Positions 24,224-42,987 of a stretch of 64,000 nt of DNA are shown piece after piece. A program made the position numbers and the translations under genes. This DNA comes from Dehalococcoidia bacterium. Its GTDB lineage: Bacteria; Chloroflexota; Dehalococcoidia; Bin125. Each line of letters starts with the position of its first letter. Position 1 is the stretch's first letter. The stretch is from the NCBI GenBank assembly GCA_965203165.1, contig OZ241849.1, positions 1,281,267 to 1,345,266 on the forward strand, read 5' to 3'. Under the pieces are notes generated by a model. The model worked only from the letters and a program-made list of their open reading frames with translations, did not search any database and was not told the origin of the DNA.

Positions 24224-24236
24224 CGCCCTCTCTTTC

Positions 24237-25657
24237 TCAGGTCTGCCGCTGCGGCGCGGCCGCACTGATCATTCTGACAGCTGCCGCCTCGCCGCCCTGC
24301 CGCCCGGGCGGACCGCTGCCGGGCAGCCGCGGGCGGGCGGCCATCAACACCCAGAGCGCGCCGGTCAGCGCGCCCAGGCCGAGCACCGTGAACGGAACGG
24401 CGTAGCTGCCGGTTGCGTCGTAGAGCACCGCGGAGAGGAAGCCGCCGACCGTCATAAAGGTCGACATCACGACCGACGACCAGCCCATGATCTGGCCGAA
24501 GTTCGACGCGCCGAAGTAGTCGGCGCGCAGCGCCGTGATCAGCGGGGCGCGCGAGCCCCAGGCGAGGCCGTTGACCAGCGCCGCCAGCAGCACGATTTCG
24601 TAGGACGCCGCGAACGCTAACAGAATCGCCGCCGCGCAGTGTCCGAACATCGCCGGAATCAGCAGCAGTCGTTTGGAATAGCGATCGCCGAGATAGCCCA
24701 TTCCCAATTGGCCGACCAGCTGCGCCAGATTCATCACCGTATAGGCGATCCCGGCGTGGGTCAGGGTCAGACCATCGATATCGGTCACCAGCAACGTGAA
24801 GTGGACGAAGACGCCGGAGATCACGAGCAGGGGCGCGCCGTGGGCAAGCGCCAGGCCCCAGAACGCCCGCGTGCGCAACGCCTCGCGCGCGGTGAAATCG
24901 CGGTGCCTGCGTGAATTCGCCGCTGGCTGCGGCGCCGCCGGCGCATCGTGCGCAGACTGTGCAGGCTGCGCCTCCGACGGCGCGGGTCCGCCGTCCTTCT
25001 GTAGTCCGCGGTCCTCGGGGCGGCGCACAAACAGCGTCGCCAGCGTTTGTCCGACGGCGAACAGTACGATTCCGGAAAGCAGCGCGGCGTTGCGCCAGCC
25101 GATCTCCTGGATCATATAACCGACGGGCGTGGCCAGAAATCCGCCCAGCGCGAAACCGGTCGACATATAACCGAGCGCGCGCGAGCGATTGCGCTCGAAC
25201 CAGGTGACGACCGCGACCGAGACGGTCATAAACCCGCCCACCGACGCGCCGATCGCGACGACGAAGTAGAAGCCGATGAACGTCCCCTGGCTCCACAGCT
25301 GGGAGAATGCGAGCAGGCCGATCGCCGTGGAGAGGATGCCCAACCGCATCATCGTCTGCGGGCCGAAGCGGTCGATCAGCCAGCCCTGGATCGGACCGAG
25401 CACGCCCGATTCGATTCGCGTGAGCATGAAGGCGAAGCCGAAGAGCGTGGCCGGCCAGAGGAACTCGGCCTTGAGCTCGGCGACGTAGAAGTGGAAGGCG
25501 TGCATGATTAGCCCGCCCATGAGCATGTTGAGCACGATGCCCGCGATGACGATGTACCAGCCGTAGAAAACGTTCGGGGCGCGCAGTCGCAAAACGTGTC
25601 CTCGTAGGCGGACCGGCTGCGCACCAGGCGGCGGCAGGCGCTTCAACCCCGTGATCA
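24237..25657 (-). CDS. MFS transporter
   Basis: About 12 hydrophobic segments and MFS loop motifs. The start was re-derived (cat at 25655-25657). The 934-aa track ORF is a chimera. Confidence 0.7.
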
Positions 25658-25796
25658 TACAGCCGCCGCCGCTTACAGCCCGCCCTAGCGTCGGGCCGTC
25701 CCGCGACGCACCGCAGCGCCCCGCAGCGTCTTGCGCTCTGGCATACTGCGGGGGCATTGGAGGGCGGCGATCGGGCCGCCGGAAGGGAGCTTGACG

Positions 25797-26732
25797 ATGG
25801 CTGAATCGCAAGGGAAACGCGCCGATGTCGATGCGCTCGCGCAGCAGCTGTCCAACTGGGGGCGCTGGGGCGCGGACGACGAGCGTGGCGCGCTCAACTT
25901 CATCACGCCCGAGACCGCCGCGGCGGCCGCCGCGCTGGTGCGGGACGGCGCGACCGTCTCCTGCGCGCTCGAGCTGGCCAAGACGCCCGCGGCCGACAAT
26001 CCGACGCCGGTGATGCACATGATGACGCTGGCCGGCGACGCCAGCGGGCAATCGCGTCTCCAGGGGATCGAGTCGACCGGCGACTATTTCGCGATCGCCC
26101 CGCACGGGATGGCCAACACGCACCTGGACGCGCTCTGCCACATCCTCGACCAGGGCAAGATGTACAACGGGTTCGAGGCCTCGGAGGTGCTGAGCACGGG
26201 CGCGATGCGCAACGCGATCACGGCGGGCGAAGACGGGATCGTCTCGCGCGGCGTGCTGCTCGACATCCCCGCGCTGCGCGGCGTGGACTGGCTCGAACCG
26301 GGCGCGCCGATCGGCGTCGCCGACCTCGAAGCGGCCGAGCAGCGCCAGAATGTGCGCGTGCGCTCCGGCGACATTCTGTTGATCCGCACGGGGCGCGACA
26401 GCCGGCGCGAGGCGGAGGGCGCCTGGCCGCCGTTCGAGGGTCTGGCCGGGCTGACGCTCGAAACGCTGCCCTGGCTGCGCGAGCGCGAAGTCGCGATCCT
26501 CGGCTGCGACGGCGTCTCCGACATGATCCCCTCGAATGTCGAGGGCTCGCCGCTGCCGATCCACCACATCATCATCACCTACATGGGCGTCCACCTGATC
26601 GACAACGCGCGGCTCGGTCCGCTGTCGGCGGCCTGCGCCGAGCGCAGCCGCTGGGAGTTCCTGCTGACGATCGCCCCGCTGCGGCTGGCCGGCGGCACCG
26701 CCTCGCCGATCAACCCGATCGCCCTCTTCTGA
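25797..26732 (+). CDS. Cyclase-family protein (kynurenine formamidase-like)
   Basis: The putative cyclase fold pattern continues to the C-terminus. ATG at 25797 follows GGAAGGGAG. Confidence 0.6.
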   Translation: MAESQGKRADVDALAQQLSNWGRWGADDERGALNFITPETAAAAAALVRDGATVSCALELAKTPAADNPTPVMHMMTLAGDASGQSRLQGIESTGDYFAIAPHGMANTHLDALCHILDQGKMYNGFEASEVLSTGAMRNAITAGEDGIVSRGVLLDIPALRGVDWLEPGAPIGVADLEAAEQRQNVRVRSGDILLIRTGRDSRREAEGAWPPFEGLAGLTLETLPWLREREVAILGCDGVSDMIPSNVEGSPLPIHHIIITYMGVHLIDNARLGPLSAACAERSRWEFLLTIAPLRLAGGTASPINPIALF

Positions 26733-26917
26733 CCTGCGCTGAGGGGCTGTCCGCGCAAAGGGGTTGGCGAGGCCAGTCGGCGCGCGGCGTCGGAGTAACG
26801 GTGGCCGCCGAGTGCGAAAGCCGACCGAGGCGCAGCGCGCACGGGGCCGCGCCTCTCCGCGAAGCCGCCTAGCGCCTCGCGAGCATCGGCCGTGGCGGTG
26901 GTCATATGTGCTATAGC

Positions 26918-29578
26918 TTACTCCAGCTCGGGCGGCCGCGGCCGGTGAAGCAGATCCCGCATTGAGTCGCTGGGCAGCCGCCTTCCTGGACGGCGCGCGA
27001 TCGAGCCAGAGGGCGGCGCATCGGGAGCCGCGCGGTACCACTCCGGCAACAGTTCCGCCGCCATCGGCGTCATTGGCCGCGTAGTCGCGAAGTGCACCTG
27101 GATTTCGCCTGCTTCGATCGAGGTGAGCACGTCGACCAAACCGTCCAGATCCATCGCAGAGTGCGTGATGTCCTGCAAGGTTTGGTAGAGGAGTGGGTGC
27201 GCGTCCGTAGGGAGCGTCGCGGTGTTGGTGTCCGCATAGTGAGACAGTTCATTGACGACCGCGTCGTAGAGAGCGGAGGCTTCGTGCTGCTGCCGCTGAA
27301 TCGGGATGCGTCCGTTGGTGTCGACGCGATGCACGGCAAGAGCGATGGTCGCTGCCCAGCGCCAGCGGACTGGCCAGAACGGGTTGAACTGCGCGGCGCG
27401 CTCGACCAACTCAACGGCATTGAGCGGATTGACAGCGGAAAACACGTCCGGCGGGATCCCTCTTGTGGCGAACCCCTCGTCAGTGATTGTTGCTGCCTGG
27501 CCGATGTCGACATGCTCGCGCTGCGCCAGTTCGAGCACGGCGGCGGCCCACGCCCGGTTGATGCGCAGGCCGAACGGAGCGTGAGCGATAACGATTTCGT
27601 CTCGCTCCTCTTCCCATGTGTGCTCAATGACGATATCCAGCTCGGACGGAATGACGCCAAGCTGCTCCTCAGTGCTGGTGAGGTAGAGAACAGCAAGTTC
27701 GTCTGGGGTTGTGTTCGATTGTGTACGACCAGCGGTACTGATCTGGTGTAGGAGTTCTACAGCGGAGTCGCTCTGATCTGCGGCTGCGATGATCGAGCGG
27801 CGGATTTTTCCGACTTCAGCTGAGAGCTCGCGACTGCGCCCTATGCCTTCACCTGGCCAGCTGGGCGGGTCGGCGCGGTCTTCGATTTGGGTGACCCAAA
27901 CAATCCCTTCCGGGTCGACGCGGCGGACCTGCCAATAGTGGCGGGCGAGCATGAAGGACATGCCTTGTTCCAGCCCGGACGCAAAGAGCTCATCGAGAAT
28001 GCCGACCTCCTTGAGATTCTCCGCGTTGACCGCGCGGAACGTTCCGGTATCGGGGATTGTCCCGCTGTTTGTCAGCGCGATGCGTCGCGTATCAGGCAAC
28101 GGCACGAGCCCATCGCGTCGCGACGACTCTGCGATCAACGGCTGGGACCGGGCGCGGCCGCTGCCCACGCCGTTGATTTGCATTTGCACAGCCGCGTCAA
28201 ACTGGTCTTCAGTGAGCTCTGCATACGGCGCCGCCCGGCGGAACATGTCGAACAGAGCTACAGGGTCCGCGAAATTGGCGGCACTGATTTCGGCGGCAAT
28301 GTGCTGCGCAAGGACATCGAGCGGCATGGGGGGTTGCTGGAGCATGTCGAGCGTGCCGGTGCGCGTGGCTTGCACAAGCGCGGCGCCCTCGATCCAGCCA
28401 TCGACCGATGTCGGGAATAGCGCGCCGTTCGGGATTCGACCTTGCACTCGCCCTGAACGGCCAACCCGCTGCAAGAACGTTGCGATGCGCTTTGGCGAGC
28501 CGATTTGACAAACCAGATCGACTGCGCCGATGTCGATTCCCAGTTCGAGCGACGCGGTGGCAACCACTGCGCGGACATCTCCCCGCTTCATCCGCTCTTC
28601 GAGTGCATCGCGGCGGGCGCGGGAAACTGCGCTGTGGTGGACTCCAACCGCATCTTCTCCGAGAATGTCGCGCAGGGCAGCGACGACGGATTCCGCATCA
28701 GCCCGCGAGTTGACGAAGACGAGGGTAGTGCGGTGTTCGCGGATCAGCTCGGCGATGCGCTTAGCAGTGAAGCTCCAATCCGCCTTGAAGCGCAGATCAG
28801 ATATCGGGTCCTGCGCGCCTTGAGGGATAGTCGGCTCAAGCCAGACCTCGATCTGCTGCTGGTGGCCCAGGTCGACGATGTGGCAAGGCAGCGGCTGGCC
28901 ATTGCGGTCGAGGCCGGAAAGGTAAGCGGCCACTTCATCCATCGGCTTCTGTGTGGCAGAGAGGCCGATGCGGGCCGGGCGCTGTCGCGCGACGTGATCG
29001 AGGCGTGCCAGGGCGAGCGCCAGGTGTGTGCCCCGTTTGTCCTGAACCAGATGGTGAATCTCGTCGATGATCACCGTTTCGACGGTGCGGAAGAGGGCGC
29101 GGCCTCGCGGCGACGAGAGCATGATGTGGAGAGATTCCGGCGTCGTGTTGAGGATGTGCGGCGGGTTGTTGTTGATGTAGTCGCGCTCTTCACGAGTTGA
29201 GTCGCCGGTCCGAACGGCGGTCCTCACGTTCGGCGCCCGCCGGCTTGACGCAAATGCGCGATCGGCGATCTCGTCGAGAGGGCCGTTGAGGCTGCGCTGG
29301 ATGTCGTTGGCGAGGGCCTTGAGCGGCGAGACGTAGAGGATTCGCAGCTCGTTGCCGAGCTGGCCGCGCGCGTCCTCTGCAATCAGCGCGTTGATTCCGG
29401 CAAGGAACGCGGTCAGGGTCTTACCGCTGCCTGTCGGCGCGGCGATCAGCGTGTCGTTGCCTGCCTGGATGCTGGGCCAGCCTTGGACCTGCGTCTCAGT
29501 CGGGCCGCCGGGGAACTTCTCTTGGAACCACTCGCGCACAAGTGGGTGAAAGCGGTCCAGCACATCGGAAGCAGTCAT
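26918..29578 (-). CDS. lhr: Lhr-like ATP-dependent DEAD/DEAH-box helicase
   Basis: Walker A AAPTGSGKT, DEIH box, and an 886-aa length typical of the Lhr core. Confidence 0.8.
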   Translation of the reverse strand: MTASDVLDRFHPLVREWFQEKFPGGPTETQVQGWPSIQAGNDTLIAAPTGSGKTLTAFLAGINALIAEDARGQLGNELRILYVSPLKALANDIQRSLNGPLDEIADRAFASSRRAPNVRTAVRTGDSTREERDYINNNPPHILNTTPESLHIMLSSPRGRALFRTVETVIIDEIHHLVQDKRGTHLALALARLDHVARQRPARIGLSATQKPMDEVAAYLSGLDRNGQPLPCHIVDLGHQQQIEVWLEPTIPQGAQDPISDLRFKADWSFTAKRIAELIREHRTTLVFVNSRADAESVVAALRDILGEDAVGVHHSAVSRARRDALEERMKRGDVRAVVATASLELGIDIGAVDLVCQIGSPKRIATFLQRVGRSGRVQGRIPNGALFPTSVDGWIEGAALVQATRTGTLDMLQQPPMPLDVLAQHIAAEISAANFADPVALFDMFRRAAPYAELTEDQFDAAVQMQINGVGSGRARSQPLIAESSRRDGLVPLPDTRRIALTNSGTIPDTGTFRAVNAENLKEVGILDELFASGLEQGMSFMLARHYWQVRRVDPEGIVWVTQIEDRADPPSWPGEGIGRSRELSAEVGKIRRSIIAAADQSDSAVELLHQISTAGRTQSNTTPDELAVLYLTSTEEQLGVIPSELDIVIEHTWEEERDEIVIAHAPFGLRINRAWAAAVLELAQREHVDIGQAATITDEGFATRGIPPDVFSAVNPLNAVELVERAAQFNPFWPVRWRWAATIALAVHRVDTNGRIPIQRQQHEASALYDAVVNELSHYADTNTATLPTDAHPLLYQTLQDITHSAMDLDGLVDVLTSIEAGEIQVHFATTRPMTPMAAELLPEWYRAAPDAPPSGSIARRPGRRLPSDSMRDLLHRPRPPELE

Positions 29579-29909
29579 GATGTGAGCAGCATAGGATCAG
29601 GTGGACACTGTGTCGTTGAAAGAGACCCAGCCATGCCCAGCAAATGGCCCGCCGTCCACGACGAAGCCCTCACCCTTTCCGTCAGATCCACGCCTGCGGC
29701 GCGCGCGCTTTCGGCAACCCGCCCCCGCCGGCCGGCCGCCTCGCTGGTGACAGCTGGCCATACCGCCGCCAGATCGTCCGCGGCGGCGAGCCCAACGCCC
29801 TCTGCCTCGCCTTATCCGGATCACCCTGCTCGTCAAGACGCCCTCTGCCGTTAGTGTGAACAGGCCGGGAGCGGCGCGCAGCCGCTTCGAGGCTGAATGG
29901 AGACCCACC

Positions 29910-32516
29910 ATGACCACTAGTTTGCCGCTTGACGGGGCGCTGGTGCTGGATTTGGCCGACGAGCCGGCGGTTGCCGCGGGGCGCTACCTCGCTGATCTGG
30001 GCGCGCGGGTGGTGCGCGTCGAATCCGCCAGCGGCGATCGCCTGCGCCGCGTCGGTCCGTGGGTCGACGGCGAGCCGGGCATTGAGCGCGGCCTGCGCCA
30101 CCTGCTCTACAACCAGGGCAAGCAGTCGCTGGCGCTGGCGTTGGACGCGCCCGAAGCCTGGGACGTGATCGAGCGGCTCGCCGAGCGCGCCGATGTCGTG
30201 ATCGGCCCGGTCGAGAAGTCGGAGCGCGCGCGCCGCGCCTTTGAGCGGCTGCGGCGCAACGCCGAAGCGGGCGCCGAGGACGCGCCGAGCGTGATCGACA
30301 TCGTCTTCCGTCGCGGCGATCCGGAGCAGGCCGCCACGGACCTGATCGCGATGGCGGCCGGCAGCCAGCTGGTCTGCAACGGCTTCCCCGACACCGCGCC
30401 CGACTATCCGGCGGGCAAGCTCGGCTACAAGCAGACCGCCTACTGCGCGGTCGCCGCGGCGGTGTCGGCGATCTGGCAGCGCTGGCGCGGCGGCGGCGCG
30501 GTCGGCAGCGTCGTCAGCATGCAGGAGGCGGTCGCCTCGACGATGATTCAGGCGGCCAACCAGAACCTCTACGTCTGGCACGGGATGATCGCGGAGCGCG
30601 ACGGCACCGGCGGGCTCAAGTATCCGGTGGTCGGGGCGGGCTTCGGCGCGTACGAGCAGGGCCGCTTCGAAGACGGCGAGATCGTTTTCATCAACACGCC
30701 GGGCTCGACCTACCAATGCGCCGACGGCAAGTGGGTGACATATCTGGGCAACCCGACCAGCACGGCGTGGGAGAACTTCCCCAACTGGTACGCGGAGGTG
30801 ACGGGCGACGACACGCTGCTCCAGGAGCCGTGGACCTCGCAGGATTACCGCGTCGCGCACCGCGAGGAGATGATCGAGTTCACGCGCCGCTTCTGCGCGG
30901 CGCAAAACCGCGAGGATCTGGTGCGCCGCGCGCAGGCGGAAGGCGATCTCGGCCTGCCGGTGCAGACCGCGCACGATCTGGTCGGCGACATCCATCTACA
31001 GGAGCGCGGCTTCTTCCGCGCCGTCGAGCACCCGCAGCTGGGGCGCAGCATTACGCTGCCACGCTCGCCTTACCGCTCGGACGCCTACGATTTCGGCTCG
31101 CGTCCCGCGCCGGCGCTCGGCGCGCACAGCGTTGAAGTGCTGCGGGAGATCGGCGGTCTCGGCAACGGCGAGATCGGCGAGCTGATCGAGTTGGGCATCG
31201 TGCGCGGCGACCGCTCGCAGTTGAACGGCGCAAACGGTTCGCTTGGCGCTTCGATTAGTGCAAACGGCGCGGCGGCTGCGCCGCCCGCGCTGAACGCGCC
31301 CGCCGATCACGGCGCGGATTCGCTGCCGCTGGCCGGCGTGCGCGTGCTCGACTTCTGCTGGATGGCGGCGGGGCCGCTGATCACCGAGATGCTGGCCAAC
31401 CTCGGCGCGGATGTGATCAAGATCGAGTCCGCCTCCGGGCTGGACAGCGTGCGCGAGTTTTCGCACCCGCCGCGCGGCTTCTCGATCGACACCGGCGCAT
31501 TCTTCAACGACACCAACACCGACAAGCGGAGCATCACGCTCAACCTGCACAAGCCGCAGAGCCTCGAACTGATCCGTAGCGTGCTCGACCAGTTCGACAT
31601 CGTGACCAACAACTTCGCGCCGGGCGCGATGCAGAAGTTCGGCCTCACCTACGACGAGCTGCGCGCGATCAAGCCCGATCTGATCTACGCCTCGTTCCCG
31701 GTGATGGGCACGTGGGGGCCGAACAACAGCTGGCGCGGGATCGGCAACGGCGTGACGGGGCTCTCGGGCGTGGTGGGGCAGACGGGACAAGCGGACCGCG
31801 CGCCGATCGGGCTGGGCTCGCTGCACACCGATTTCACGCTCGCGCCGATCGCCGCTTCGCAGATCATCGCCGCGCTGATCCACCGCGAGCGCACGGGCGA
31901 GGGGCAGGAGATCGAGATCGCGCAGTACGAGGCGGCCGTCCACCTGCTTGACGCCGAGCTGGTCGACGCGCTGGTCAACGACGCCGACACGCCGCGGATC
32001 GGCAACCGCTCGACCGAGTACGCGCCGCACGGCCTCTTTCCGGCCAACGGGAACGATGAGTGGCTCGCGGTCGCGGTGCGCGGAACGGGCGAGTGGCTCG
32101 AGCTCTGCGACGTGATCAAACGCCCCGACCTGGCGGAGCGCGGCGAGCTGCGCAGCCTCGCCGGGCGCAAAGCGGCGGAGGACGAGATCGAAGCCGCGCT
32201 GGCGGCCTGGTCGAGCCAGCTCGACCCATGGCGCGCAGCCGGTCTGCTGCAGGCGCGCGGCATCCCCGCCTCGCCCGCCGAAACCGCCCGCGACCTGGTG
32301 CTCAACGACGACGGGATTCAGCCCTATTTCTTCCATTTCCAGCGCGGCGAGGCGCCTTTCATGGTGCAGCACCAGCCGTTCACCTGGAACGGCCGCCGGC
32401 TGGGCAAGCGGGGCTCGCCCGAACTGGGCGAGCACAACGAGCAGGTGCTCAAAGAGGAGTGGGGCGTGGGCGATGAGCGCTACGTTGACCTGCTGGTCGA
32501 GCAGGTCATCTTCTAA
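29910..32516 (+). CDS. Tandem (double-domain) CoA-transferase family III protein
   Basis: Two complete CaiB/BaiF units: LVLDLADEPAVAAGRYLADLGARVVRVE... and VRVLDFCWMAAGPLITEMLANLGADVIKIE.... ATG at 29910 follows GGAG. Confidence 0.8.
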   Translation: MTTSLPLDGALVLDLADEPAVAAGRYLADLGARVVRVESASGDRLRRVGPWVDGEPGIERGLRHLLYNQGKQSLALALDAPEAWDVIERLAERADVVIGPVEKSERARRAFERLRRNAEAGAEDAPSVIDIVFRRGDPEQAATDLIAMAAGSQLVCNGFPDTAPDYPAGKLGYKQTAYCAVAAAVSAIWQRWRGGGAVGSVVSMQEAVASTMIQAANQNLYVWHGMIAERDGTGGLKYPVVGAGFGAYEQGRFEDGEIVFINTPGSTYQCADGKWVTYLGNPTSTAWENFPNWYAEVTGDDTLLQEPWTSQDYRVAHREEMIEFTRRFCAAQNREDLVRRAQAEGDLGLPVQTAHDLVGDIHLQERGFFRAVEHPQLGRSITLPRSPYRSDAYDFGSRPAPALGAHSVEVLREIGGLGNGEIGELIELGIVRGDRSQLNGANGSLGASISANGAAAAPPALNAPADHGADSLPLAGVRVLDFCWMAAGPLITEMLANLGADVIKIESASGLDSVREFSHPPRGFSIDTGAFFNDTNTDKRSITLNLHKPQSLELIRSVLDQFDIVTNNFAPGAMQKFGLTYDELRAIKPDLIYASFPVMGTWGPNNSWRGIGNGVTGLSGVVGQTGQADRAPIGLGSLHTDFTLAPIAASQIIAALIHRERTGEGQEIEIAQYEAAVHLLDAELVDALVNDADTPRIGNRSTEYAPHGLFPANGNDEWLAVAVRGTGEWLELCDVIKRPDLAERGELRSLAGRKAAEDEIEAALAAWSSQLDPWRAAGLLQARGIPASPAETARDLVLNDDGIQPYFFHFQRGEAPFMVQHQPFTWNGRRLGKRGSPELGEHNEQVLKEEWGVGDERYVDLLVEQVIF

Positions 32517-32532
32517 TCACCGCCTCCGCGAC

Positions 32533-34280
32533 TCATTCGCGCTCCGACTCGCCGCGGTCCACTTCAACGAAAGCGCGGGTCAACGCCTCTTCCATTGCAG
32601 TCGGAGGCTCCGCACCACCGGGTTCCGGATCGCCGTCAGCCGCCCGAGCCGACGGCTCTGCTTCGTCCGAGCCATCGCCCACATGCACAACACGCCAGAC
32701 GCCGTCGAACTCCCAGCCAGCCTCTTCGACAGCAGATCGATCTTCAACCGCGCCCAAAACAAGGTGGCCAGCAGCGCCCGCGCCACTCCGCTCGCGATCG
32801 ACGCGAAGGATCTTGACCGGGATGAGATCCCCTTTTCTGACAACGTCTTCGACGCTGCCGTCGGCGCCCGGGGCGAGTTGAGAGACATCCATGTGCCCGT
32901 GGACGTACGTCCCTTCAATTCGCGCGTTCACAACTCTTTTCGATTGTACGCCCGCAACTTCGGCGATTACGAACGGTTCGGTGCGCAGCCGCGCTACGAC
33001 ACTGTCCCATTCTTGGGAGGCCGCCTGGCGCATCGAGAGGCGCAGATCTGCGGAGCCCGCGCGCACCGCCAGAACGTGCACTTGTACATCCTGCCCTACC
33101 TGGAACATGTCGCTGGCGACTGTGTCGTGACTCCACGAAACTTCCCTGTTCGGTATGAGCCAACTGACGCCGCCGTACTCCACGGACACACTGCCGTTTG
33201 ATCGGATCTTGCTGATCTTGCCGGCGATGACGTCGCCCTTCTTCAGCCCGGTTAGCGCCGTGCGTTTCCGCGCCGCGCGCTCTGAGAGAATCGCCTCTTT
33301 TTGCCTGGGATCGAACTTGACCACCTTGAACCACAACGAACTGCCGCGCTTGTACTTGCGAACATCCGCGTCGGCGAGTTGGCTTCGCGGCGCGAGTGCT
33401 ACTGCGCCTCGAACCATGACCTTCAAGCCGTCTTCGCTGTAGTCGACGATGCGGCCGTGCACCAGCGCATCCTCGGTGTAACAGCGTTCGAGTTCGTCCC
33501 ACCCGATCAAGTAGTTCGCGCTGTCCGCGGTCACCGTGTAGTCGTCAAGCCACAACTTATGCATCGGTGATCGCGCCCCAGCTCCGAGGTGTCGGAGCCG
33601 GCGGTGTTTCTTGTCCAGAATCTGGTCCTGGCGCTTCCGCGTGCCGTCGGCTTGCAGCACCCGCCGGCACCACCCGGCTCGATGTATCTGCGGCAGGAGT
33701 TCAGTGCTGTAGCGGGTCAGCATCGCATGCATGAGCGGGAGAAAATCGCTGTCCTCCGAGAACAGGATGGCGACATCAAACTCCCCTTGCGCCGCCATGG
33801 CGAGCACATCCACGGTCAGCTGCGTGTCAACCTCCTGTTCGAAGGGTTTGCACCGCTCCGCCCAACGTGGGTGCGACGCCTTCGGATAGTGAAGCGGTGG
33901 ATCAATGACTGTGATTTTCGGGCTGTCGACCGGGTCAGACATATTGCCGTCCAACCACGCGTACTTTCTCGCAAGGCTGTCGGCGTGCCTCTTCGACTCC
34001 TTCTGCTGATGGGGCAGGCCGCGATACACACGGACCTCTGACAGCTTCAGTGGGGGCAATCCGCGTCGCTCTGGCCTTTTGTTGTACTGTTCGCAGACCA
34101 GTCTTCCGAGCTCGCCAGGGTGAAAGTGCCCAGCATTGTCGAGGCGGTCCCCGAACAGCCTGGCAGCATTCTGCCGGGCGTTCTCGTAATCGACGAACAG
34201 CACCGTCTTGAGATGATCGACATCGGACGCCGCGTGGTCCTGTGTTCTCGCAACATCCGGCTCGTGGTGATCAAGCGGCA
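32533..34280 (-). CDS. NYN-domain (LabA-like) ribonuclease fused to three S1 RNA-binding domains
   Basis: NYN: TVLFVDYENARQNA...FDVAILFSEDSDFLPLM. Three S1-like segments: GRIVDYSEDGLKVMV..., GDVIAGKISKIRSNGSVSVE..., VIAEVAGVQSKRVVNARIEGTYVHGHM.... Likely GTG start overlapping the upstream stop (GTGCCGCTTGA). Confidence 0.55.
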
Positions 34281-34891
34281 CTCGGAGCCTCGCTCTCGAG
34301 GACCTGATCAAGAACGTGCCAGGCCAGAGTATGTTGCCTGATGGCCCCGGCGCTGAGGCGCCAATCTCGCCACAGATGCTCTTGACCGGTCCATGCTGCA
34401 AGATCAAGCCGAGGCGCTGCACCTGCGCCAAACCGATCAGTGATCGCACGCACCACCGGCGCACAGTCTCGATCAGTTGAGAACAGTACCGCAACAGCTA
34501 GCTCGGATGCTCCAGCAGCGGCGAGCTGCGCCCAATTAAACAGCTCGGTCGACAGCGTCGTGTAGAGTTCTTTGACCGTTCTCCATCGAGGCTCATCGTA
34601 CGCGTGCTCCCAAACGTAGACGCGCTCACCACCATGCCTGGACTCCCAGGCTTGGCCTAACTCTTCGTAGAACCGGTGCTCTACACTCCCGTGTTCGCGC
34701 GGGATGCCTCGAAACACGCACGATTGGAGCAGTTCATAGGCCGAATCGCCCGAGTTGGCCTCGCGGCCCATCTCGTCGCAGATGGCCTCGCCAAGCCTCC
34801 ACGGGTCAAAGTGGCCGTCGCCGCCCGACTGGGCTGCCGCGAATGAGCGTGCATCCTCATAGTCGATGAATGCGATGACCTGCGTCGCCAT
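34271..34891 (-). CDS. Stand-alone NYN-domain (LabA-like) protein
   Basis: MATQVIAFIDYEDARSF...ELAVAVLFSTDRDCAPVV. Its start may be further upstream (35020). Confidence 0.55.
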   Translation of the reverse strand: MATQVIAFIDYEDARSFAAAQSGGDGHFDPWRLGEAICDEMGREANSGDSAYELLQSCVFRGIPREHGSVEHRFYEELGQAWESRHGGERVYVWEHAYDEPRWRTVKELYTTLSTELFNWAQLAAAGASELAVAVLFSTDRDCAPVVRAITDRFGAGAAPRLDLAAWTGQEHLWRDWRLSAGAIRQHTLAWHVLDQVLESEAPSAA

Positions 34892-35601
34892 TGGCGTCTC
34901 CGCCAGAAACGAGCCAGCCCCGCCGCACCGGTTCTTTACGCCGGCCGGCAGGGCTGCCCATCCGCTCAGCTGCTGAGTGCCCGAGTGCTCTAGGTACGCG
35001 CCACTTACGTTCTCCGGCATCTCGTCGCGTGGCTGGCGCCTGGAGGAGTTCGTCCTTGCCAGACAGGTTGTGCCCCTGCGATGTCCACCGAAACGCGTCG
35101 ATCGGTTCCCCTAGCTCGAGCTCCTCTCCGGGTTTCTCCCGGAAGACTGAGCCTCTTCATCCTAGCACACACTCTGATCCGTGTGTCAAGCTCCAGTCGC
35201 AAGACGCGCCAAAGCCCCTTCAGGGCTCAAGTCTGCTGGACCGATCTCTCGCAAACGGACCACGGCGCGGCGGCGGTGAGGCGCAGTTCGCTGCGTTGGG
35301 CTTGCTGCTGCCGGAGGTCCGTTGGGGCGGCGCTGCGGCAGAGGGCGATGTCGCTGAGCAAGTCGGCGCGTTGGGCGGTGACGGTGGCGCGGGTGGTGCG
35401 TTGGGGGATGGGGCGGATGCCGGCGCCGCGTTGGCGGGGCAGGAGGGTGAACGTACCCATATTCTGATTAGGTGCCGGGCGGCGGGGTTTGTCAAGTGGA
35501 TGAGGATGTGGAGGCGGGCGCGGGGCGCTGTGCTGGGCGCGACGGGGGTTTCGGCACCGGGTGTGCTGGGATTGTTTGGGTCGGGGCAGTGAGGTTTTGG
35601 G

Positions 35602-35790
35602 GCGCGATGGGGTTGGGCGCGGGCTGTGCGAGCGGCGCGATGGAGTTGGGCGCGGGCTGTGCGAGCGGCGCGACGGAGTTGGCGCGGGCCGTGCCAAGGG
35701 CGCGACGGCGCGCGCGGGCCGTGCTAAGGGCACGGTGGAGTTGGGCGCGGGTTTGTGCCAGGGGCGCGCGACGGCGACGGGCCTCGGCTA
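35602..35790. repeat. Degenerate 33-bp tandem repeat (about 5 copies) in the 3' region of glnK
   Basis: GCGCGATGGRGTTGGGCGCGGGCTGTGCGAGCG appears twice as perfect copies, then diverged copies. Confidence 0.5.
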
Positions 35791-36132
35791 GAGGACGTCG
35801 GGGCCGCGTTCGCCGGTGCGGACACGGATGGCGTCCTCTACGTCGGAGACGAAGATTTTGCCGTCGCCGATGTTGCCGGTGCGCGCGTTGGTCAGGATTG
35901 CGTCCAGCGCCTTGTCGGCCCAGTCCTGGGTTGAGACGACGATGGTCAGCTTGACCTTGGGCAGCATGTCCACCCGGTAGGGCTGGCCGCCGCGGCCGTC
36001 GCGCTGCACGCCGCCCTGGTGGCCGTGGCCGGCCACGTTTTCGACGTGCATGCCGTTGATCTCGAGCTTGACCAGCGCTCGCTTGACCTCGTCCATGGCC
36101 TCCGGGCGAATGATCGCCTCGATCTTCTTCAT
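35788..36132 (-). CDS. glnK: Nitrogen regulatory protein P-II
   Basis: MKKIEAIIRPE...; T-loop GHGHQGG... in a homologous position; immediately downstream of amt. Confidence 0.9.
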   Translation of the reverse strand: MKKIEAIIRPEAMDEVKRALVKLEINGMHVENVAGHGHQGGVQRDGRGGQPYRVDMLPKVKLTIVVSTQDWADKALDAILTNARTGNIGDGKIFVSDVEDAIRVRTGERGPDVL

Positions 36133-37472
36133 TATCGCGACCTCCTGCGCAGAACTTCGAAGCCGACGACCGGCTCTTCGTGCTCTTCCGAGCTCGCCGC
36201 CCAGCTGACGCCGATCTCGTCAAACTGGTAGGCGGGCTCGTTGTGTCCCGCTCGATCCAGACCGATCAGTTCCTCGCGCGGCTCCACCCGCAGCGGGATG
36301 AACTTGCCGATCACCCAGAACAGCCCGATCGACAGCGCCAGCGACCACGCGAATGCGGCCAGCACGCCGACGATCTGCTTCCAGAACAGGTCCCACGAAC
36401 CCTCGATTGCCCCGCTCACGCCGTTGATCGCCGTCACGGCGAACAGGCCGGTGGCCAGCGCGCCCCAGATGCCGCCCACGCCGTGGACGGCGAAGACATC
36501 GAGCGTGTCGTCGAGGTGCCCCCAGTTGTGCAGCAGGCGCACGGCGTAGAAGCCGAGCACACTGGCCATCCCGCCGATCATGATCGCCGGCATGGCGTCG
36601 AGATAGCCGTCGGTGGCGGGCCAGAGGCCGACGAAGCCCGCGGCTGGCGTGATTGCGACCAGCCCGGCCACGGCGCCGGTCGCCGCGCCGATGATTGAGG
36701 GGTGCCCGGTGTAGCGCCAGCTGAGCAGGGTCCAAGCCACCGCGCCGGCGCCGGCCGAGATGTGCGTCTGCACGAAGGCGCTGGCGGCGAGGCCGTCGGC
36801 CGCCAGCGCGGAGCCGGCGTTGAAGCCGAACCAGCCGAACCAGAGCAGGCCCGCGCCGAGCACGACCTTGGAGACATCGTGGGGGTCGGTCTCCGCCACG
36901 CTGTCGCGGCGGCGTCCGACGAAGATTGCGCCGGCCAGCGCGGCAGCGCCGGCGTTGATGTGCACCACGGCGCCGCCCGCGAAGTCCACCGCGCCCAAGT
37001 CGAGCAGCCAGCCGCCCGGAGCCCAGACCCAGTGCGCCAGCGGCGCGTAAACGATCGTGACCCAGGCCACGGTGAAGACGATCAGCGCGCTGAAGCGGAT
37101 GCGCTCGACGAACGCGCCGGTGATCAGCGCCGGGGTGATGATCGCGAACATCATCTGGAAGCCCATGAAGATGATGTCGGGCACGCCGCCGGAGGAGGGC
37201 CAGACGCCATCCTCGTCCGGCCCCAGGCCGCGCAGGCCGAAGTTTTTGAGGTCGCCGACGAAGCCGCCGATGTCGCCGCTGAACGCCAGGCTGTAGCCCC
37301 AGAGCACCCAGACGATCGTGACGACGCCCATCATCGTGAACGACTGCATGATCGTGGAGGCGGCGTTCTTGGTCCGCACCAGGCCGCTGTAGAAGAATGC
37401 GAGACCCACCACCATCAGCAGCACCAGCGCCGCTGAGACCAACAACCAGGCGACATTGCCTCCGTCGAGCAT
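36132..37472 (-). CDS. amt: Ammonium transporter
   Basis: Amt/MEP signature, 11 TM segments, GAVAGLVAITPAAG... region. Confidence 0.9.
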   Translation of the reverse strand: MLDGGNVAWLLVSAALVLLMVVGLAFFYSGLVRTKNAASTIMQSFTMMGVVTIVWVLWGYSLAFSGDIGGFVGDLKNFGLRGLGPDEDGVWPSSGGVPDIIFMGFQMMFAIITPALITGAFVERIRFSALIVFTVAWVTIVYAPLAHWVWAPGGWLLDLGAVDFAGGAVVHINAGAAALAGAIFVGRRRDSVAETDPHDVSKVVLGAGLLWFGWFGFNAGSALAADGLAASAFVQTHISAGAGAVAWTLLSWRYTGHPSIIGAATGAVAGLVAITPAAGFVGLWPATDGYLDAMPAIMIGGMASVLGFYAVRLLHNWGHLDDTLDVFAVHGVGGIWGALATGLFAVTAINGVSGAIEGSWDLFWKQIVGVLAAFAWSLALSIGLFWVIGKFIPLRVEPREELIGLDRAGHNEPAYQFDEIGVSWAASSEEHEEPVVGFEVLRRRSR

Positions 37473-37714
37473 TGCGGTTTCTCCTCTTCAGCGGCGGGGC
37501 GGCGAGGGCCGCCCGCGGCGCGGTTCGGCGCTGCGGATTGCGCGGGAACGCACAAGGTCGCACAGGGCCCCGTTCGCGCGCTTGCGTAGAATACAACGAT
37601 GCGCGGCTAGCGCTACAGCGATCGCCCGATTGTGAAGTTGACAGTTGAGTCGGCTGATAAGATCACCCGCACTGCGGCTCCCGCAGCCGCCCCCGAAGAC
37701 CGCCCGGAGACCGC

Positions 37715-38491
<777 letters not shown>

Positions 38492-38711
38492 TTGAGTTGG
38501 CGGCCGCTCGGTCGCCGCGGCGCGCGCGCCGGGCGCGCAGGCGGTGGATAAGCGCTCCAGGCAACGCAGCCGCTGTTGCGCAACCGTCATCCACAGGTTG
38601 TTGACAGGACCGCGGCGAGGCTGAATACGGATACAATCAAGGGCAGCGGCGCACGTGCCGCTGCGACGCGGTGGATGAGACGGCGGCAAAGCCGCCGCTC
38701 CCGGAGCCGAC

Positions 38712-39722
38712 ATGGACGACCATTCCGCCCCCCCCAGCGAGGCCGCGACCGACGACGCCTACGCGCTCGTCTTCCCCGGCCAGGGCTCGCAGTCCGTCGG
38801 CATGGCCGGCAAGGTGCTCGAGGTCCACCCGGCCGCCGAGCACTGGTTCGAGCGCGCCAATCAGCTGCTCGATTACGACCTGCTGGGCCTGATCGAGCGC
38901 GGCCCGGTGGAAGACCTCAACGAGACCGAGCATTCGCAGCCCGCGATCTTCGTGGCCAGCGTCGCTTGGCTCGAAGCGCTGCGAGCCACCTGGCACGCCG
39001 CCGGGCGAAAACTCAGCCCGACCGTCGTCTCCGGGCACAGCATGGGGCAGATCACCGCGATGTTCTCGGCCGGCTCGATCAACTTCGACGACGCGCTGCG
39101 GCTGGTCAAAAGCCGCGGCGAGCTGATGCGCGACGCCAATCTGCGCCGCCCCGGCGGGATGGCCTCGATCATCGGCCTGCGCGACCGCGTGCTCCGCTCG
39201 CTGGTCGGCGAGGCCGCCAACGACGGCACGATCGTGGTCGCCAACGACAACTGCCCCGGGCAGACCGTGGTCTCGGGCGACGACGCGCCGCTGCGCCGCC
39301 TGATGCGGCTGGCCGAGGACCACGGGGCGCGGCGGGTCGTGCGGCTGCCGATCTCGATCGCCTCGCATTCCCCGCTGATGGCCGACGCGCAGACGCAGTT
39401 CCGCGACGCGGTGCGCTCGGTCAAGTGGAGCGAGCCGGTCGTGCCGGTCGTGAGCAACATCAGCGGCGGCCTGATGCACACCAGCGACCAACTGGTCCAC
39501 GAGCTCTCCGACGCGCTCACCGCGCCGGTGCAGTGGCAGACGGCGGTCAAGACGATGGCCGCGCAGGGCTCGACGCTGTTCGTCGAAGCGGGGCCGGGCG
39601 ATGTGCTCTCGAAGCTCGTGCGGCGCATCTCGCGCACCTCCTGGACATTCCCGCTCTCCGACGACGACGCCGGACTGGGCGTGCGCGACTACCCGGACAA
39701 GAGCGACGGGATCCCCAAGTGA
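38712..39722 (+). CDS. fabD: Malonyl-CoA:ACP transacylase
   Basis: FPGQGSQSVGM and GHSMGQ active-site motifs. Confidence 0.85.
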   Translation: MDDHSAPPSEAATDDAYALVFPGQGSQSVGMAGKVLEVHPAAEHWFERANQLLDYDLLGLIERGPVEDLNETEHSQPAIFVASVAWLEALRATWHAAGRKLSPTVVSGHSMGQITAMFSAGSINFDDALRLVKSRGELMRDANLRRPGGMASIIGLRDRVLRSLVGEAANDGTIVVANDNCPGQTVVSGDDAPLRRLMRLAEDHGARRVVRLPISIASHSPLMADAQTQFRDAVRSVKWSEPVVPVVSNISGGLMHTSDQLVHELSDALTAPVQWQTAVKTMAAQGSTLFVEAGPGDVLSKLVRRISRTSWTFPLSDDDAGLGVRDYPDKSDGIPK

Positions 39723-39774
39723 GCCAGCCAGCGAGCCGCCGCCGGCTGCGCGCGGGCAATCCGCAGGCGGCCTG

Positions 39775-41022
39775 ATGCGGCGCACCGTGATCACCGGACT
39801 TGGCGCGGTCACGCCGGTCGGCAATGACATGCCGAGCAGCTGGGACGCGCTGATCGCCGGGCGCAGCGGCGTCGGGCGGCTGGAACGCTTCGACCCCGAA
39901 GCGGCCGGCATCCGCATTCCGATCGCCGCCGAAGTGCGCGGCTTCGAGCCCGACGCCGTGCTGCCCAACGACAAGGCGCTGCGCCACATCGATCGCAATG
40001 TGCAGTACGCGCTCGCCGCCGGCTTGGAGGCGTTGGCCGACTCCGCACTCGAGGTCAACGAGGACAACCGCGACCGGGTCGGGGTGATCTTCGGCAGCGG
40101 CGGCGGCGGAATGGAGCTCGTGATCCGCTGGGAGAACGTGCTCCAGGAGCGCGGCGCGCGGCGCGTCTCGCCGTTTGCGATGCCCAACCTGATCGCCGAC
40201 GCTGCCAGCGGGCACATCGCGATCGCGACCAGCGCGGCCGGGCCCAACTATTCGCCCACATCGGCCTGCGCGACGGGCGCGAACGCGGTCTCCGACGGGA
40301 TGCTTCAGATCGCGGCCGGTCGCGCCGACGCGCTGATCGTGGGCGGCTCGGAGGCGATCATTCTGCCGCTCTTCCACGCCTGCTTCGAGCGCATGGGCGT
40401 GCTCTCCGCGCCCGCCGAGCCGCTCTCCGCCTCGTGCCGCCCCTACGACCTGCACCGCGACGGCTTCGTGCCCGGCGAAGGCGCGGCGGCGCTGATGATC
40501 GAGGAGCTTGAGCACGCCCGCGCGCGCGGCGCGCGCATCTACGCCGAGGTGGTCGGCGGCGGCAGCGCCAACGACGCGCACGACATGGCGCAGCCCGACA
40601 GCGACGGCCTGGGGCTGATCGTCTCGGTCGAGCAGGCCTTAAATCAGGCGCAGATCGATCTCGCCGAGGTCGGCTACATCAGCACTCACGGCACCGCCAC
40701 CAAGCTTGGGGACCAGGTCGAGACCACGGCGATCAAGCGGCTCTTCGGCGCGCACGCCGAGGACCTCGCGATCTCTTCGATTAAGCCCGCCACCGGGCAC
40801 ATGATGGGCGCGAGCGGCGCGCTGGAAGTCAGCGTCTGCGCGCTGGCGCTGCATCACGGCGTCGCGCCGCCCACGCTCAACTACGAAACGCCCGATCCCG
40901 ATTGCGACCTCGACTGCATCCCCAACGAGGCGCGCGAAATTGATCTGGAGGCCGCCCTTTCCGTCTCCGTCGGCCTCGGCGGCCACAACGCCGCCGTCCT
41001 GCTCAAGCGCTACCGCGAATGA
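39775..41022 (+). CDS. fabF: 3-oxoacyl-ACP synthase II (KAS II), copy 1
   Basis: Cys-His-His triad contexts SACATG, STHGTAT and GHMMGASG. ATG at 39775 (MRRTVITGLGAVTPVG). Confidence 0.85.
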   Translation: MRRTVITGLGAVTPVGNDMPSSWDALIAGRSGVGRLERFDPEAAGIRIPIAAEVRGFEPDAVLPNDKALRHIDRNVQYALAAGLEALADSALEVNEDNRDRVGVIFGSGGGGMELVIRWENVLQERGARRVSPFAMPNLIADAASGHIAIATSAAGPNYSPTSACATGANAVSDGMLQIAAGRADALIVGGSEAIILPLFHACFERMGVLSAPAEPLSASCRPYDLHRDGFVPGEGAAALMIEELEHARARGARIYAEVVGGGSANDAHDMAQPDSDGLGLIVSVEQALNQAQIDLAEVGYISTHGTATKLGDQVETTAIKRLFGAHAEDLAISSIKPATGHMMGASGALEVSVCALALHHGVAPPTLNYETPDPDCDLDCIPNEAREIDLEAALSVSVGLGGHNAAVLLKRYRE

Positions 41023-42275
41023 CCCGCAGCGCTGAGCGCGAGCGCGTCGTGATCACCGGCATCGGGCCGGTCACCCCGATCGGCATCGGCGTCGACGCCT
41101 TCTGGGACTCGCTGCGCGAGGGGCGCTCCGGCGTGCGCCGCGTGCCCGCCCTGGCCGAGGCCGGGCTCAAGGTGCAGATCGCCGCCGACATCCCCGAGTT
41201 CGACCCCACCGACTTTATGGACGCCAAGGCCGCCCGCCGCATGGCGCGCTTCGCCCAGCTCGCCGTCGCCGCCGGCCGCCTCGCCGTGGCCGACGCCGGG
41301 CTCGATCTTGCGCAACACGACACCGAGCGGATCGCCACGATCGTCAACACCGGCGGCGGCGGCGTCACGACCATCGCGGACCAGGCCGCGGTGCTCAACG
41401 AGCGCGGGCCCGGCCGCGTCTCGGCGCTGTTCGTGCCGATGATGGCGGGCAACATGGCCTCCTGCCAGGTCTCGATCGAGCTCGGCCTGCGCGGCCCGGT
41501 GATCACCTCGCTTGCCGCCTGCGCCAGCAGCGTCTACGCCTTCATCGACGGCCGCCAGATGCTGCTCGGCGGCGAGGCCGAACTGGCCCTCGCCGGCGGC
41601 GCGGAGTCCAATGTCTCCCCGCTGGGCATCGCCGGCCTGGCCAACATGCACGCGCTCTCGCGCCGCAACGAGGAGCCGACCCGCGCCTCGCGCCCCTTCG
41701 ACCGCGACCGCGACGGCTTCGTTTTCGGCGAAGGCGCGGTCGTCTGCATCCTCGAAACGCTTGAGCAGGCGCAGCGGCGCGGCGCGCGCATCTACGCCGA
41801 AGTGCTCGGCGGCGGGCGCACCGCCGACGCCTTCCACATCACCGCGCCCGATCCTCAGGGCGAGGGCGCAGCCCGCGCGATGCGGGCCGCGCTGCGCAAC
41901 TCCGAGCTCGAGCCCGAGGCGATCGACTACATCTGCGCGCACGGCACGGGCACCGCGCTCAACGACGCGATCGAGACCCGCGCGATTCACGATGTCTTCG
42001 GCGCGCACGCCGCGCGGCTTGCCGTCAGCTCGCCCAAGAGCATGACCGGCCACCTGATGGGCGCCGCCGGCGCGCTCTCGGCCGCCGCTGCCGCGCTCGC
42101 GCTCTATCACGGCGTCCTGCCGCCCACGATCAACCACGAGCACGCCGACCCCGACTGCGACCTCGATTACGTGCCTCAACGCTCGCGCCCCGCCGAGCTG
42201 CGCCACGCCCTGGTCAACGGCTTCGGCTTCGGCGGCCAGAACGGGGTTGTCGCGCTGGCCCGCTTGAGTGAGTAG
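41019..42275 (+). CDS. fabF: 3-oxoacyl-ACP synthase II (KAS II), copy 2
   Basis: AACASS, CAHGTGT, GHLMGAAG. Its start overlaps the previous stop (ATGA). Confidence 0.85.
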   Translation: MTRSAERERVVITGIGPVTPIGIGVDAFWDSLREGRSGVRRVPALAEAGLKVQIAADIPEFDPTDFMDAKAARRMARFAQLAVAAGRLAVADAGLDLAQHDTERIATIVNTGGGGVTTIADQAAVLNERGPGRVSALFVPMMAGNMASCQVSIELGLRGPVITSLAACASSVYAFIDGRQMLLGGEAELALAGGAESNVSPLGIAGLANMHALSRRNEEPTRASRPFDRDRDGFVFGEGAVVCILETLEQAQRRGARIYAEVLGGGRTADAFHITAPDPQGEGAARAMRAALRNSELEPEAIDYICAHGTGTALNDAIETRAIHDVFGAHAARLAVSSPKSMTGHLMGAAGALSAAAAALALYHGVLPPTINHEHADPDCDLDYVPQRSRPAELRHALVNGFGFGGQNGVVALARLSE

Positions 42276-42335
42276 CCTCACTGCTGCGGCGCACTCCCAA
42301 CCCGCGCCGCGCGACATCACGCGGAGGGAGCCCCG

Positions 42336-42590
42336 ATGAGCGCCGTCCAGGACCGCGTCCGACAACTGATCGCCGACCAACTCCGCCAGCCGCTCGAAAA
42401 GGTCGCCAACGATTCGCACCTGATCGACGACCTCGACGCCGACTCGCTGGACATCGTCGATCTGACGATCGCCATCGAGGAGGAATTCTCGACCGACGAC
42501 AACCAGCTCGAGATCCCTGAAGAAGACGCCGCCGAGATCCGCACGGTGCAGGAGCTGCTCGACTACCTCGCCAATCACGGAATCGTCTGA
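42336..42590 (+). CDS. acpP: Acyl carrier protein
   Basis: DLDADSLDIVDL phosphopantetheine-attachment motif; 84 aa, acidic. Confidence 0.85.
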   Translation: MSAVQDRVRQLIADQLRQPLEKVANDSHLIDDLDADSLDIVDLTIAIEEEFSTDDNQLEIPEEDAAEIRTVQELLDYLANHGIV

Positions 42591-42597
42591 GACCGCC

Positions 42598-42975: not shown

Positions 42976-42987
42976 GGCCGCCTGCGC

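Follow-up and report, generated by a model that had tools for sequence, protein, structure and literature searches.

The window analysed here is a 64,000-nucleotide stretch of a Dehalococcoidia bacterium genome (phylum Chloroflexota; assembly GCA_965203165.1, contig OZ241849.1, positions 1,281,267 to 1,345,266), and its subject is a pair of overlapping minus-strand genes that may encode a two-subunit RNA-targeting module. The small gene comes first and encodes a protein with an NYN-type nuclease fold; the large gene follows and encodes a second NYN domain fused to three S1 domains. As an earlier sequence-only reading of this DNA had it, the pair comes after an Lhr-like helicase gene (26918..29578, minus strand) and a CoA-transferase gene (29856..32516, plus strand), and its GC content (0.61–0.63 over 32500–35000) is below that of the flanks (about 0.70). 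The CoA-transferase and NYN-S1 genes are convergent, with 16 nt between their stop codons, and the former encodes an 886-aa protein made of two tandem family III CoA-transferase modules (two Pfam stretches). The pair consists of the following elements.

34271..34891, minus strand: small gene (gene 1), ATG at 34891 to TGA at 34271, 206 aa, NYN-fold paralogue
32533..34281, minus strand: large gene (gene 2), GTG at 34281 to the stop at 32533, 582 aa, NYN domain, three S1 domains, C-terminal motif and tail
34271..34281, minus strand: overlap of the small-gene stop and the large-gene start, 11 nt, GTGCCGCTTGA, as read in the sequence

The ATG of the small gene is preceded by GGAG 9 nt upstream, and its product begins with MATQVIAFIDYEDA. 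The GTG of the large gene lies inside GTGCCGCTTGA, with GAGG 7–8 nt upstream, and the conserved core of its product opens with TVLFVDYENA. The embedding of the downstream GTG in the upstream stop, noticed in the sequence-only reading, is thus an 11-nt overlap that, judging from its arrangement, is a translational-coupling junction of the two genes. Both open reading frames and their order, NYN followed by NYN with three S1 domains, hold as first described. The length of the second gene does not: the 653-aa form is merely the maximal open reading frame, which begins at a TTG at 34494 and runs inside the small gene. The 582-aa form is preferred because it agrees with the gene calls made on related contigs and with the N-terminal leader that the homologues conserve. 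A 249-aa form of the small gene (start 35020) was likewise rejected, as its extension contains in-frame stops in a 90%-identical relative (locus L005; L numbers denote loci and P numbers proteins throughout).

The large protein is divided as follows.

33517..34212, minus strand: NYN domain, residues 24–255, with the full catalytic set D31/D152/D177
33277..33474, minus strand: S1 domain a (S1a), residues 270–335, AlphaFold (AF2) strands at 273–333, colinear with E. coli bS1 domain 2
33028..33240, minus strand: S1 domain b (S1b), residues 348–418, the best Pfam S1 stretch, exchanged between alleles
32746..32976, minus strand: S1 domain c (S1c), residues 436–512, seen by Pfam and AF2, exchanged between alleles
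32683..32718, minus strand: C-terminal motif GWEFDGVWRVVH, residues 522–533, family-specific, consensus GWxFDxxGR
32536..32676, minus strand: acidic Pro/Gly/Ala-rich tail, residues 536–582, predicted to be disordered

Pfam recognizes NYN (PF01936) in this protein at 29.4 bits (cut-off 24.2), with only positions 74–114 of the hidden Markov model (HMM) aligned; in the relatives P0056 and P0080 the alignment covers HMM positions 2–116. The S1 family (PF00575) is matched in three stretches with 74.6 bits, above threshold. The AlphaFold model has a mean predicted local distance difference test score (pLDDT) of 68.7 and shows an NYN-type α/β domain at residues 24–250 with moderate confidence, followed by three five-stranded oligonucleotide-binding (OB) folds (residues 273–333, 351–416 and 438–511; pLDDT 80–92). 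The pLDDT of the tail drops below 50 at residues 536–567 and 569–582, and the tail contains a short TAMEEAL-xRA helix that is also present in P0079 and P0084. In a 14-sequence alignment of large proteins, D31, N34, E148, E150, D152, D158, D177 and D179 are invariant. The triad D31/D152/D177 was assigned by analogy to D358/D426/D452 of MARF1 and D14/D92/D115 of 2QIP; searches of PDB sequences with profiles of the small family and of the canonical family gave no usable NYN alignment. According to published NYN work, enzymes with this Asp triad are metal (Mn/Mg)-dependent endonucleases of single-stranded RNA. Three Asp residues, including MARF1 D426, have been described as the NYN active site, of which only the first has been tested by mutation (B. 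fragilis D13).

The top PDB matches of the large-protein model found by Foldseek are ribosomal protein bS1, and the three S1 domains align with E. coli bS1 in a single colinear alignment over residues 94–339, which are domains 2–4. The protein is not rpsA itself: it scores 104 bits against the NCBIfam equivalog, whose cut-off is 368, and bS1 domain 1, the ribosome anchor, is absent from the alignment. Its RNA-binding part looks like a piece captured from bS1 that lacks domain 1, which anchors bS1 to the ribosome. S1 domains bind single-stranded RNA. The C-terminal motif, in which W523 and F525 are invariant in the large-protein alignment, occurs in all NYN-S1 proteins and is absent from the ribosomal S1 matches.

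The small protein is a single domain with an NYN/PIN-like fold and a paralogue of the large protein's N-terminal NYN domain. Pfam gives no match for the window protein, which does not reach the PF01936 threshold; precomputed PF01936 matches exist for a few small partners (P0045, P0046, P0048 and P0054). The difference between the two copies lies in the second motif, canonically E-K-G-[I/V]-D, whose Asp was equated with MARF1 D426 and 2QIP D92 by motif position and by its spacing to the third Asp. This Asp is found in 128 of 155 aligned family members, including every large protein, where the motif reads E-K/Q-E-V-D without exception. All 27 small-partner-type sequences have His or Tyr instead and have also lost the preceding Glu; in the window protein, Y110 stands for the catalytic Asp and V106 for the Glu. 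The window protein keeps D10, D140 and D142, as do the other small partners, in which K107 is invariant, R141 nearly invariant and E108 present in most.

Because the second motif is intact in one protein and degenerate in the other, we assign catalysis to the large protein and regard its small partner as most likely a pseudo-nuclease. The sequence-only reading had placed acidic clusters in both NYN domains and called gene 1 a stand-alone NYN nuclease. Two canonical acidic residues have been lost from the small protein, and the label of gene 1 is probably wrong, given Tyr or His at the MARF1 D426 position in all small partners. A symmetric enzyme of two active nucleases, in which the small protein would be a true stand-alone nuclease, would explain why D10, D140 and D142 are invariant in the small family and why E108 is kept in most of its members. 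It would not explain the uniform replacement of an Asp that most of the wider family retains, or the accompanying loss of the Glu, and is very unlikely.

The two genes travel together, being neighbours in all loci that were retrieved. Eleven allele classes were compared (the window, L005, L007, L008, L009, L013, L014, L028, L029, L030 and L031), and in 11 of 11 the large gene directly follows the small one on the same strand, with junction gaps of −11, −11, −4, −4, +1, −1, −1, +1, −4, +1 and +17 nt. A metagenome protein of 744 aa, P0056, carries two NYN domains and then S1 domains in a single reading frame and appears to be a natural fusion of the small and large proteins; since it is known from a single contig, it may owe its form to a frameshift introduced in sequencing or assembly. 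Across allele pairs, the identity of the small protein correlates with that of the NYN domain (r 0.92) and of S1a (r 0.87) and does not track that of S1b (r 0.31) or S1c (r 0.47). This co-variation fits a partnership of the small protein with the NYN domain. The upstream position of the small gene, its translational coupling and the co-variation are antitoxin-like features, and the P0056 fusion is consistent with joint action.

The same arrangement could belong to a plain toxin-antitoxin (TA) addiction module with no immune role, in which an NYN-S1 toxin would be blocked by an upstream pseudo-NYN antitoxin through heterodimer formation and the diversity of the alleles would reflect selfish turnover of incompatible versions. 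An inactive partner encoded first, with overlapping stop and start codons, is typical of type II TA operons; PIN-like RNases are established as the commonest TA toxins (Matelska 2017); the inactive paralogue co-varies with the toxin domain; and the cassette, described below, is low in GC and apparently exchangeable. The pair is an overlapping two-gene operon with a PIN-superfamily (NYN) domain, but its gene sizes are atypical of type II TA and the module is far larger than usual TA pairs. Moreover, the small protein shows neither the DNA-binding nor the disordered features of an antitoxin (it has no helix-turn-helix (HTH), ribbon-helix-helix (RHH) or AbrB domain), it evolves more slowly than the supposed toxin (ratio of nonsynonymous to synonymous substitution rates, dN/dS, 0.14 versus 0.33), and the fusion P0056 exists. 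A plain addiction module is rather unlikely, although it is hard to separate from a conflict module, since many TA modules act in defence.

The pair occupies a replaceable cassette with sharp edges.

32517..35787, no strand assigned: replaceable cassette, comprising the upstream non-coding stretch and both genes, between the glnB/P-II stop (35788) and the CoA-transferase stop (32516)
34892..35787, minus strand: upstream non-coding part of the cassette, 896 nt
35584..35768, no strand assigned: tandem array of five 33-nt copies at the left cassette edge, immediately after the glnB stop, in L001–L004 only

In blastn comparisons with L007, L008, L013, L014 and L031, DNA identity of 85–90% stops exactly at 35788 and restarts exactly at 32516/32515, with nothing alignable in between. 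The syntenic neighbours in these five loci (amtB, glnB, fabG, fabD, two ketoacyl synthase (KAS) genes, CoA-transferase and cyclase) are 85–96% identical at the protein level, while the NYN pair in the same slot is 28–37% identical. At least eight allele classes occupy this window-type slot. Two more are found in a second genomic context (slot or context B), where the pair lies between a glyoxalase gene and a short-chain dehydrogenase/reductase (SDR) gene (L009–L012 and L028).

The alleles are also mosaic inside the large gene. L014 is L013-like from the left flank through the small gene, the NYN domain and S1a, up to its position 11666, and L007-like from 11731 onwards, across S1b and S1c and as far as the CoA-transferase gene, which places the crossover in the linker between S1a and S1b. 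S1b alone is common to L014 and the slot-B allele L028, at 87% DNA identity. The S1b modules of L007 (9160..9801), L008 (7017..7664), L014 (11731..12372) and L028 (1945..2183) share 83–100% protein identity, and the NYN domains of these alleles only 38–41%. In L007 and L008, S1b is 56% identical to the ribosomal-S1-length S1-like proteins P0027 and P0028, versus 37% to the window S1b, a likeness that may stem from capture or gene conversion from rpsA.

Substitution rates (dS, synonymous) between the window and L005 give dN/dS of 0.33 for the large gene (NYN 0.28, S1 domains 0.35–0.42; dS 0.40) and, for the small gene, the value quoted above with dS 0.38; the cyclase and CoA-transferase flanks have dN/dS 0.11–0.12 and dS 0.20–0.22. 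Between the window and L001, dN/dS is 0.57 for the large gene and 0.12 for the small one, both with dS 0.03, and 0.00–0.10 in the flanks with dS 0.10–0.18. The dS of the pair thus exceeds that of the flanks in one comparison and falls below it in the other, which points to a cassette with its own exchange history. Both genes are under purifying selection by these values and so are functional. Within a cluster whose sequences share 90% identity or more, S1a and S1b have about twice the density of variable sites found in the NYN domain.

The upstream part of the cassette yielded several candidates that were not retained. A third gene (a 77-aa open reading frame in L001–4 or a 297-aa one in L005) is not conserved, as the 77-aa frame is missing from L005, and has no family matches. 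The 33-nt array is no good candidate for a repeat RNA antitoxin of the ToxI kind (type III TA, ToxIN), being confined to the window-type allele with nothing comparable upstream of the others. An Rfam scan of 24000–44000 with E up to 1 returned no non-coding RNA family; a consensus promoter scan of the DNA upstream in the cassette found 0 sites, and terminator-like sites are no commoner than in shuffled sequences. By eye, TTGACA-19 nt-TAGGAT at 35189..35159 is an unverified candidate promoter.

The NYN-S1 pair family is very rare. A word-indexed search of 5.8 billion proteins found about 16 NYN-S1 proteins and 14 small partners, all metagenomic. An exhaustive profile search of 1.84 billion representatives gave 851 relatives at E ≤1e-3 and 294 at ≤1e-10, most of the 851 being stand-alone proteins of about 200 aa (PF01936 confirmed in 25 of 25 scanned). 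It added the NYN-S1 clusters P0079, P0080, P0084, P0086, P0101, P0104 and P0123; the family amounts to about 15 clusters among these representatives. A full-length relative was found in one of 185,579 GTDB species representatives, a 3.17-Mb Dehalococcoidia metagenome-assembled genome (OZ251529.1). An origin of the cassette from a phage or plasmid was considered and rejected: viral contigs and phage genomes gave no matches, and the plasmid relatives are only remote (26–28% identical) stand-alone NYN genes on actinobacterial plasmids.

These last belong to a larger clade of NYN proteins that stand alone, are about 200 aa long and share a FIDYQN...EKGID...DTDLLPA signature, encoded at L016 (9998..10621), L018 (4073..4819) and the plasmid loci L033 and L034. 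Its hosts are Actinomycetota and Chloroflexota genomes and actinobacterial plasmids. On a Dietzia plasmid the stand-alone NYN gene adjoins genes for an EcoRI-family methyltransferase, a DUF262 protein and a Shedu nuclease. This clade is likely the ancestor of the duplicated pair.

Position and rarity bear on whether the pair could serve lineage-specific housekeeping RNA processing or decay, as a heterodimeric NYN RNase whose bS1-like array would engage mRNA or rRNA in the manner of RNase E/G or Rae1, with fast evolution resulting from weak constraint. In every clade genome retrieved, the pair has the same chromosomal slot beside amtB-glnB and the fab genes, with infB-rbfA-truB about 8 kb away; purifying selection acts on both genes; the S1 array is of ribosomal-protein origin; and bacterial NYN genes have been tied to tRNA and rRNA maturation by their neighbourhoods (Matelska 2017). 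A housekeeping gene would hardly be expected, however, to be 28–37% identical amid ten flanking genes at 85–96%, to have sharp cassette edges and intragenic module swapping, to recur in a second, unrelated genomic context, or to leave a full-length relative in a single GTDB species representative. The pair shares no operon with an RNA-processing gene. A conserved operon for rRNA or tRNA processing, the setting that the sequence-only reading had named as contrary to its proposal, was not found: the conserved amt-glnB/fab neighbours show no co-evolution with the pair, and L009–L012 and L028 have different surroundings. The housekeeping explanation is unlikely.

Further genes of the neighbourhood vary as well. 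Between the CoA-transferase and cyclase genes there is a second slot of variable content, which differs by genome.

Window, L005 and L014: Lhr-type helicase gene, of lower GC and 85–86% identical, with generic PADLOC matches to DpdJ, BrxH and SngC
L013 (15466..16998) and L031 (15417..16952): gene for a 510–511-aa protein with no Pfam match and weak, consistent PADLOC matches to RT_UG23, UG36 and Drt8, best E 6e-11
L007: genes for a DUF11 protein and a canonical NYN protein, the latter matching HEC-09 at 43 bits
L008: empty

In the window, this slot holds the helicase gene at 26918..29578 (minus strand), whose 886-aa product has DEAD, Helicase_C, WH_Lhr and DEAD_assoc domains; its GC content is about 0.63, and its dS between the window and L005 (0.53, with dN/dS 0.15) is more than twice that of the flanks. 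The protein of L013 and L031 is possibly a novel DRT-like (defence-associated reverse transcriptase) gene product. A diversity-generating retroelement with the NYN-S1 gene as its target was rejected, as no direct repeat of at least 30 nt links the reverse transcriptase (RT)-like and NYN-S1 genes in L013 or L031 and the window allele lacks an RT. In context B, a TmtA/Tiamat-like gene (L009 5816..8917, minus strand; a 1033-aa SACS/NOV_C protein; PADLOC 261 bits) lies two genes downstream of the pair. Such defence-like neighbours are suggestive, amounting to guilt by association at few loci.

The pair very probably has the anatomy of a two-subunit RNase. The large protein would be the effector, a metal-dependent NYN endoribonuclease with the complete triad D31/D152/D177, and its bS1-derived array of three OB folds would hold single-stranded RNA for cleavage by the NYN domain. 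The small protein would descend from a duplicated NYN copy that lost the middle Asp (now Tyr110) and the preceding Glu, and the overlapping stop and start would keep its output in fixed proportion to that of the large protein. We infer that the pseudo-NYN protein pairs with the catalytic NYN domain, most likely restraining or gating it in the manner of an antitoxin or regulator; alternatively, it may complete the RNA-binding surface. Inhibition specifically by the small subunit is only a tentative assignment, which may well turn out otherwise. The cassette passes between relatives through recombination in the conserved genes on either side, and its S1 modules, which are reshuffled at the linkers between domains, would be a diversifying specificity element. 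Module reshuffling and cassette exchange together suggest that recognition by the OB array is under diversifying selection.

At a probability of roughly one half, we read the pair as a two-subunit RNA-targeting conflict module, either for phage defence or abortive infection or of a toxin-antitoxin-like kind. The idea of a conflict system had been raised in the sequence-only reading; it draws indirect support from a hypervariable, mosaic cassette in a fixed slot with variable, defence-like neighbours, and is probably wrong insofar as it made gene 1 an active nuclease. Several observations weigh against the conflict-module reading. No relatives of the pair were found in the viral contigs or phage genomes searched. 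PADLOC matched no system: the large protein gave a partial HEC-09 match (21 bits over 44 residues) and the small protein none, and HEC-09 (Hma-embedded NYN candidate), the only related candidate, gave no protection in the phage assays reported for it. The related loci were all retrieved by homology to the pair, so that slot occupancy is seen only in carriers, and the defence-like neighbours among them are few. Co-variation of the small protein with the NYN domain and S1a could be plain physical linkage. The retained D10, D140 and D142 may allow residual or altered catalysis in the small protein. With dN/dS below 1 in both genes, positive selection is not demonstrated, and the cassette contains no sensor, regulator or mobility gene.

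In a more specific version, which we regard as highly improbable, the OB folds would be a decoy copy of bS1 domains 2–4, bound by phage factors or RNAs that hijack host S1. Known hijackers of host S1 are Qbeta replicase and T4 RegB. Binding would detach the pseudo-NYN partner, set the catalytic NYN domain free and lead to RNA destruction, and shuffling of S1 modules with occasional re-copying from rpsA would keep the decoy matched to phage targets. If true, this would make the pair a guard or decoy immune sensor for which a ribosomal protein supplied the parts.

NYN (LabA-like) nucleases are abundant in bacteria, yet hardly any has been characterised, and this locus is a compact and unusually informative example. 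A fixed slot, allelic replacement and module swapping at linkers form a signature usual for immunity or addiction genes. Should the conflict-module reading be correct, the known conflict systems would gain an RNA-targeting one from Chloroflexota, where hardly any defence has been studied by experiment; the pair would also provide a natural instance of a PIN-superfamily nuclease controlled by a pseudo-enzyme and indicate that S1 domains can be used as exchangeable specificity modules.

Elsewhere in the window, the 16-mer TCCGTCATACCCGCGC occurs 40 times with at most one mismatch, where 0.08 occurrences are expected, and nearly all copies are on the minus strand. Its repeats lie at 859–1436, 8683–9422, 11246–11677, 17260–17847 and 50923–51582, in composite arrays with periods of 23–25 nt and about 110–280 nt that include the hairpin ATACCCGCG-GCAAG-CGCGGGTAT. 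Copies are also present in L005, L009, L011, L015, L017 and L028. This is a dispersed repeat family of this Dehalococcoidia lineage, similar to repetitive extragenic palindromes or bacterial interspersed mosaic elements (REP/BIME).

Among known systems, the nearest defence candidate is HEC-09, whose model other alleles of the pair match at 29–32 bits. Both have a MARF1-like NYN domain and a defence-type neighbourhood; HEC-09, however, is a single gene with an N-terminal IF2B/5-like domain and no S1 domain, and the pair remains unassigned to any named defence system, as the sequence-only reading had stated. The NYN domain itself was compared with the LabA-like family (PF01936/COG1432), which includes VPA0982 (2QIP), MARF1 (5YAA/6FDL) and a CRISPR-associated NYN protein of B. 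fragilis. Unlike these, the pair is a putative heteropair of one intact and one degenerate copy, and the intact one carries three S1 domains in place of OST-HTH/LOTUS, RRM or nothing. The subfamily of the window, VDYEN...EKEVD...LFSxDxD, is remote from the solved NYN structures and has no PDB sequence match.

For fusions of NYN with OST-HTH domains, a role as stand-alone RNA-degradation systems has been predicted (Anantharaman et al. 2010, as cited in PMC5499597), and comparative genomics has predicted effectors with OST-HTH and multiple S1 domains in the TERNS3 conflict systems (PMC8195603). The pair resembles them in coupling an NYN RNase or effector to a dedicated RNA-binding module and in the use of multi-S1 arrays as effector parts, but it lacks OST-HTH. 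With type II TA modules of the VapBC kind it has in common a small, overlapping two-gene operon, a PIN-superfamily RNase, an upstream partner and a variable, exchangeable locus. It differs in that the partner is a 206-aa paralogous pseudo-nuclease, not a DNA-binding antitoxin, and that the putative toxin is of the NYN type with a 250-aa RNA-binding array.

The three OB folds are colinear with domains 2–4 of bS1, yet the protein falls below the rpsA cut-off, is without domain 1 and carries the GWxFDxxGR motif, which S1 proteins do not have. A nuclease joined to an S1 or OB part is also found in the S1-bearing RNases (RNase E/G, PNPase, RNase R and Rrp44/Dis3), and Rrp44 combines PIN, OB and S1 domains. 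At the pollen-killer locus PK3 of Arabidopsis, two different LabA-like NYN proteins (KPOK3A and KPOK3C), both needed, act together at a hypervariable conflict locus; being a eukaryotic, mitochondrial system with a HEAT-repeat antidote and no sequence relation to the pair, PK3 is an analogy only. No description of an NYN protein with three S1 domains, or of an operon of NYN and pseudo-NYN genes, was found in the searchable literature. The kinds of domain, LabA-like NYN and S1, are already known; their combination, an NYN protein with three S1 domains and a pseudo-NYN partner, is probably a new system.

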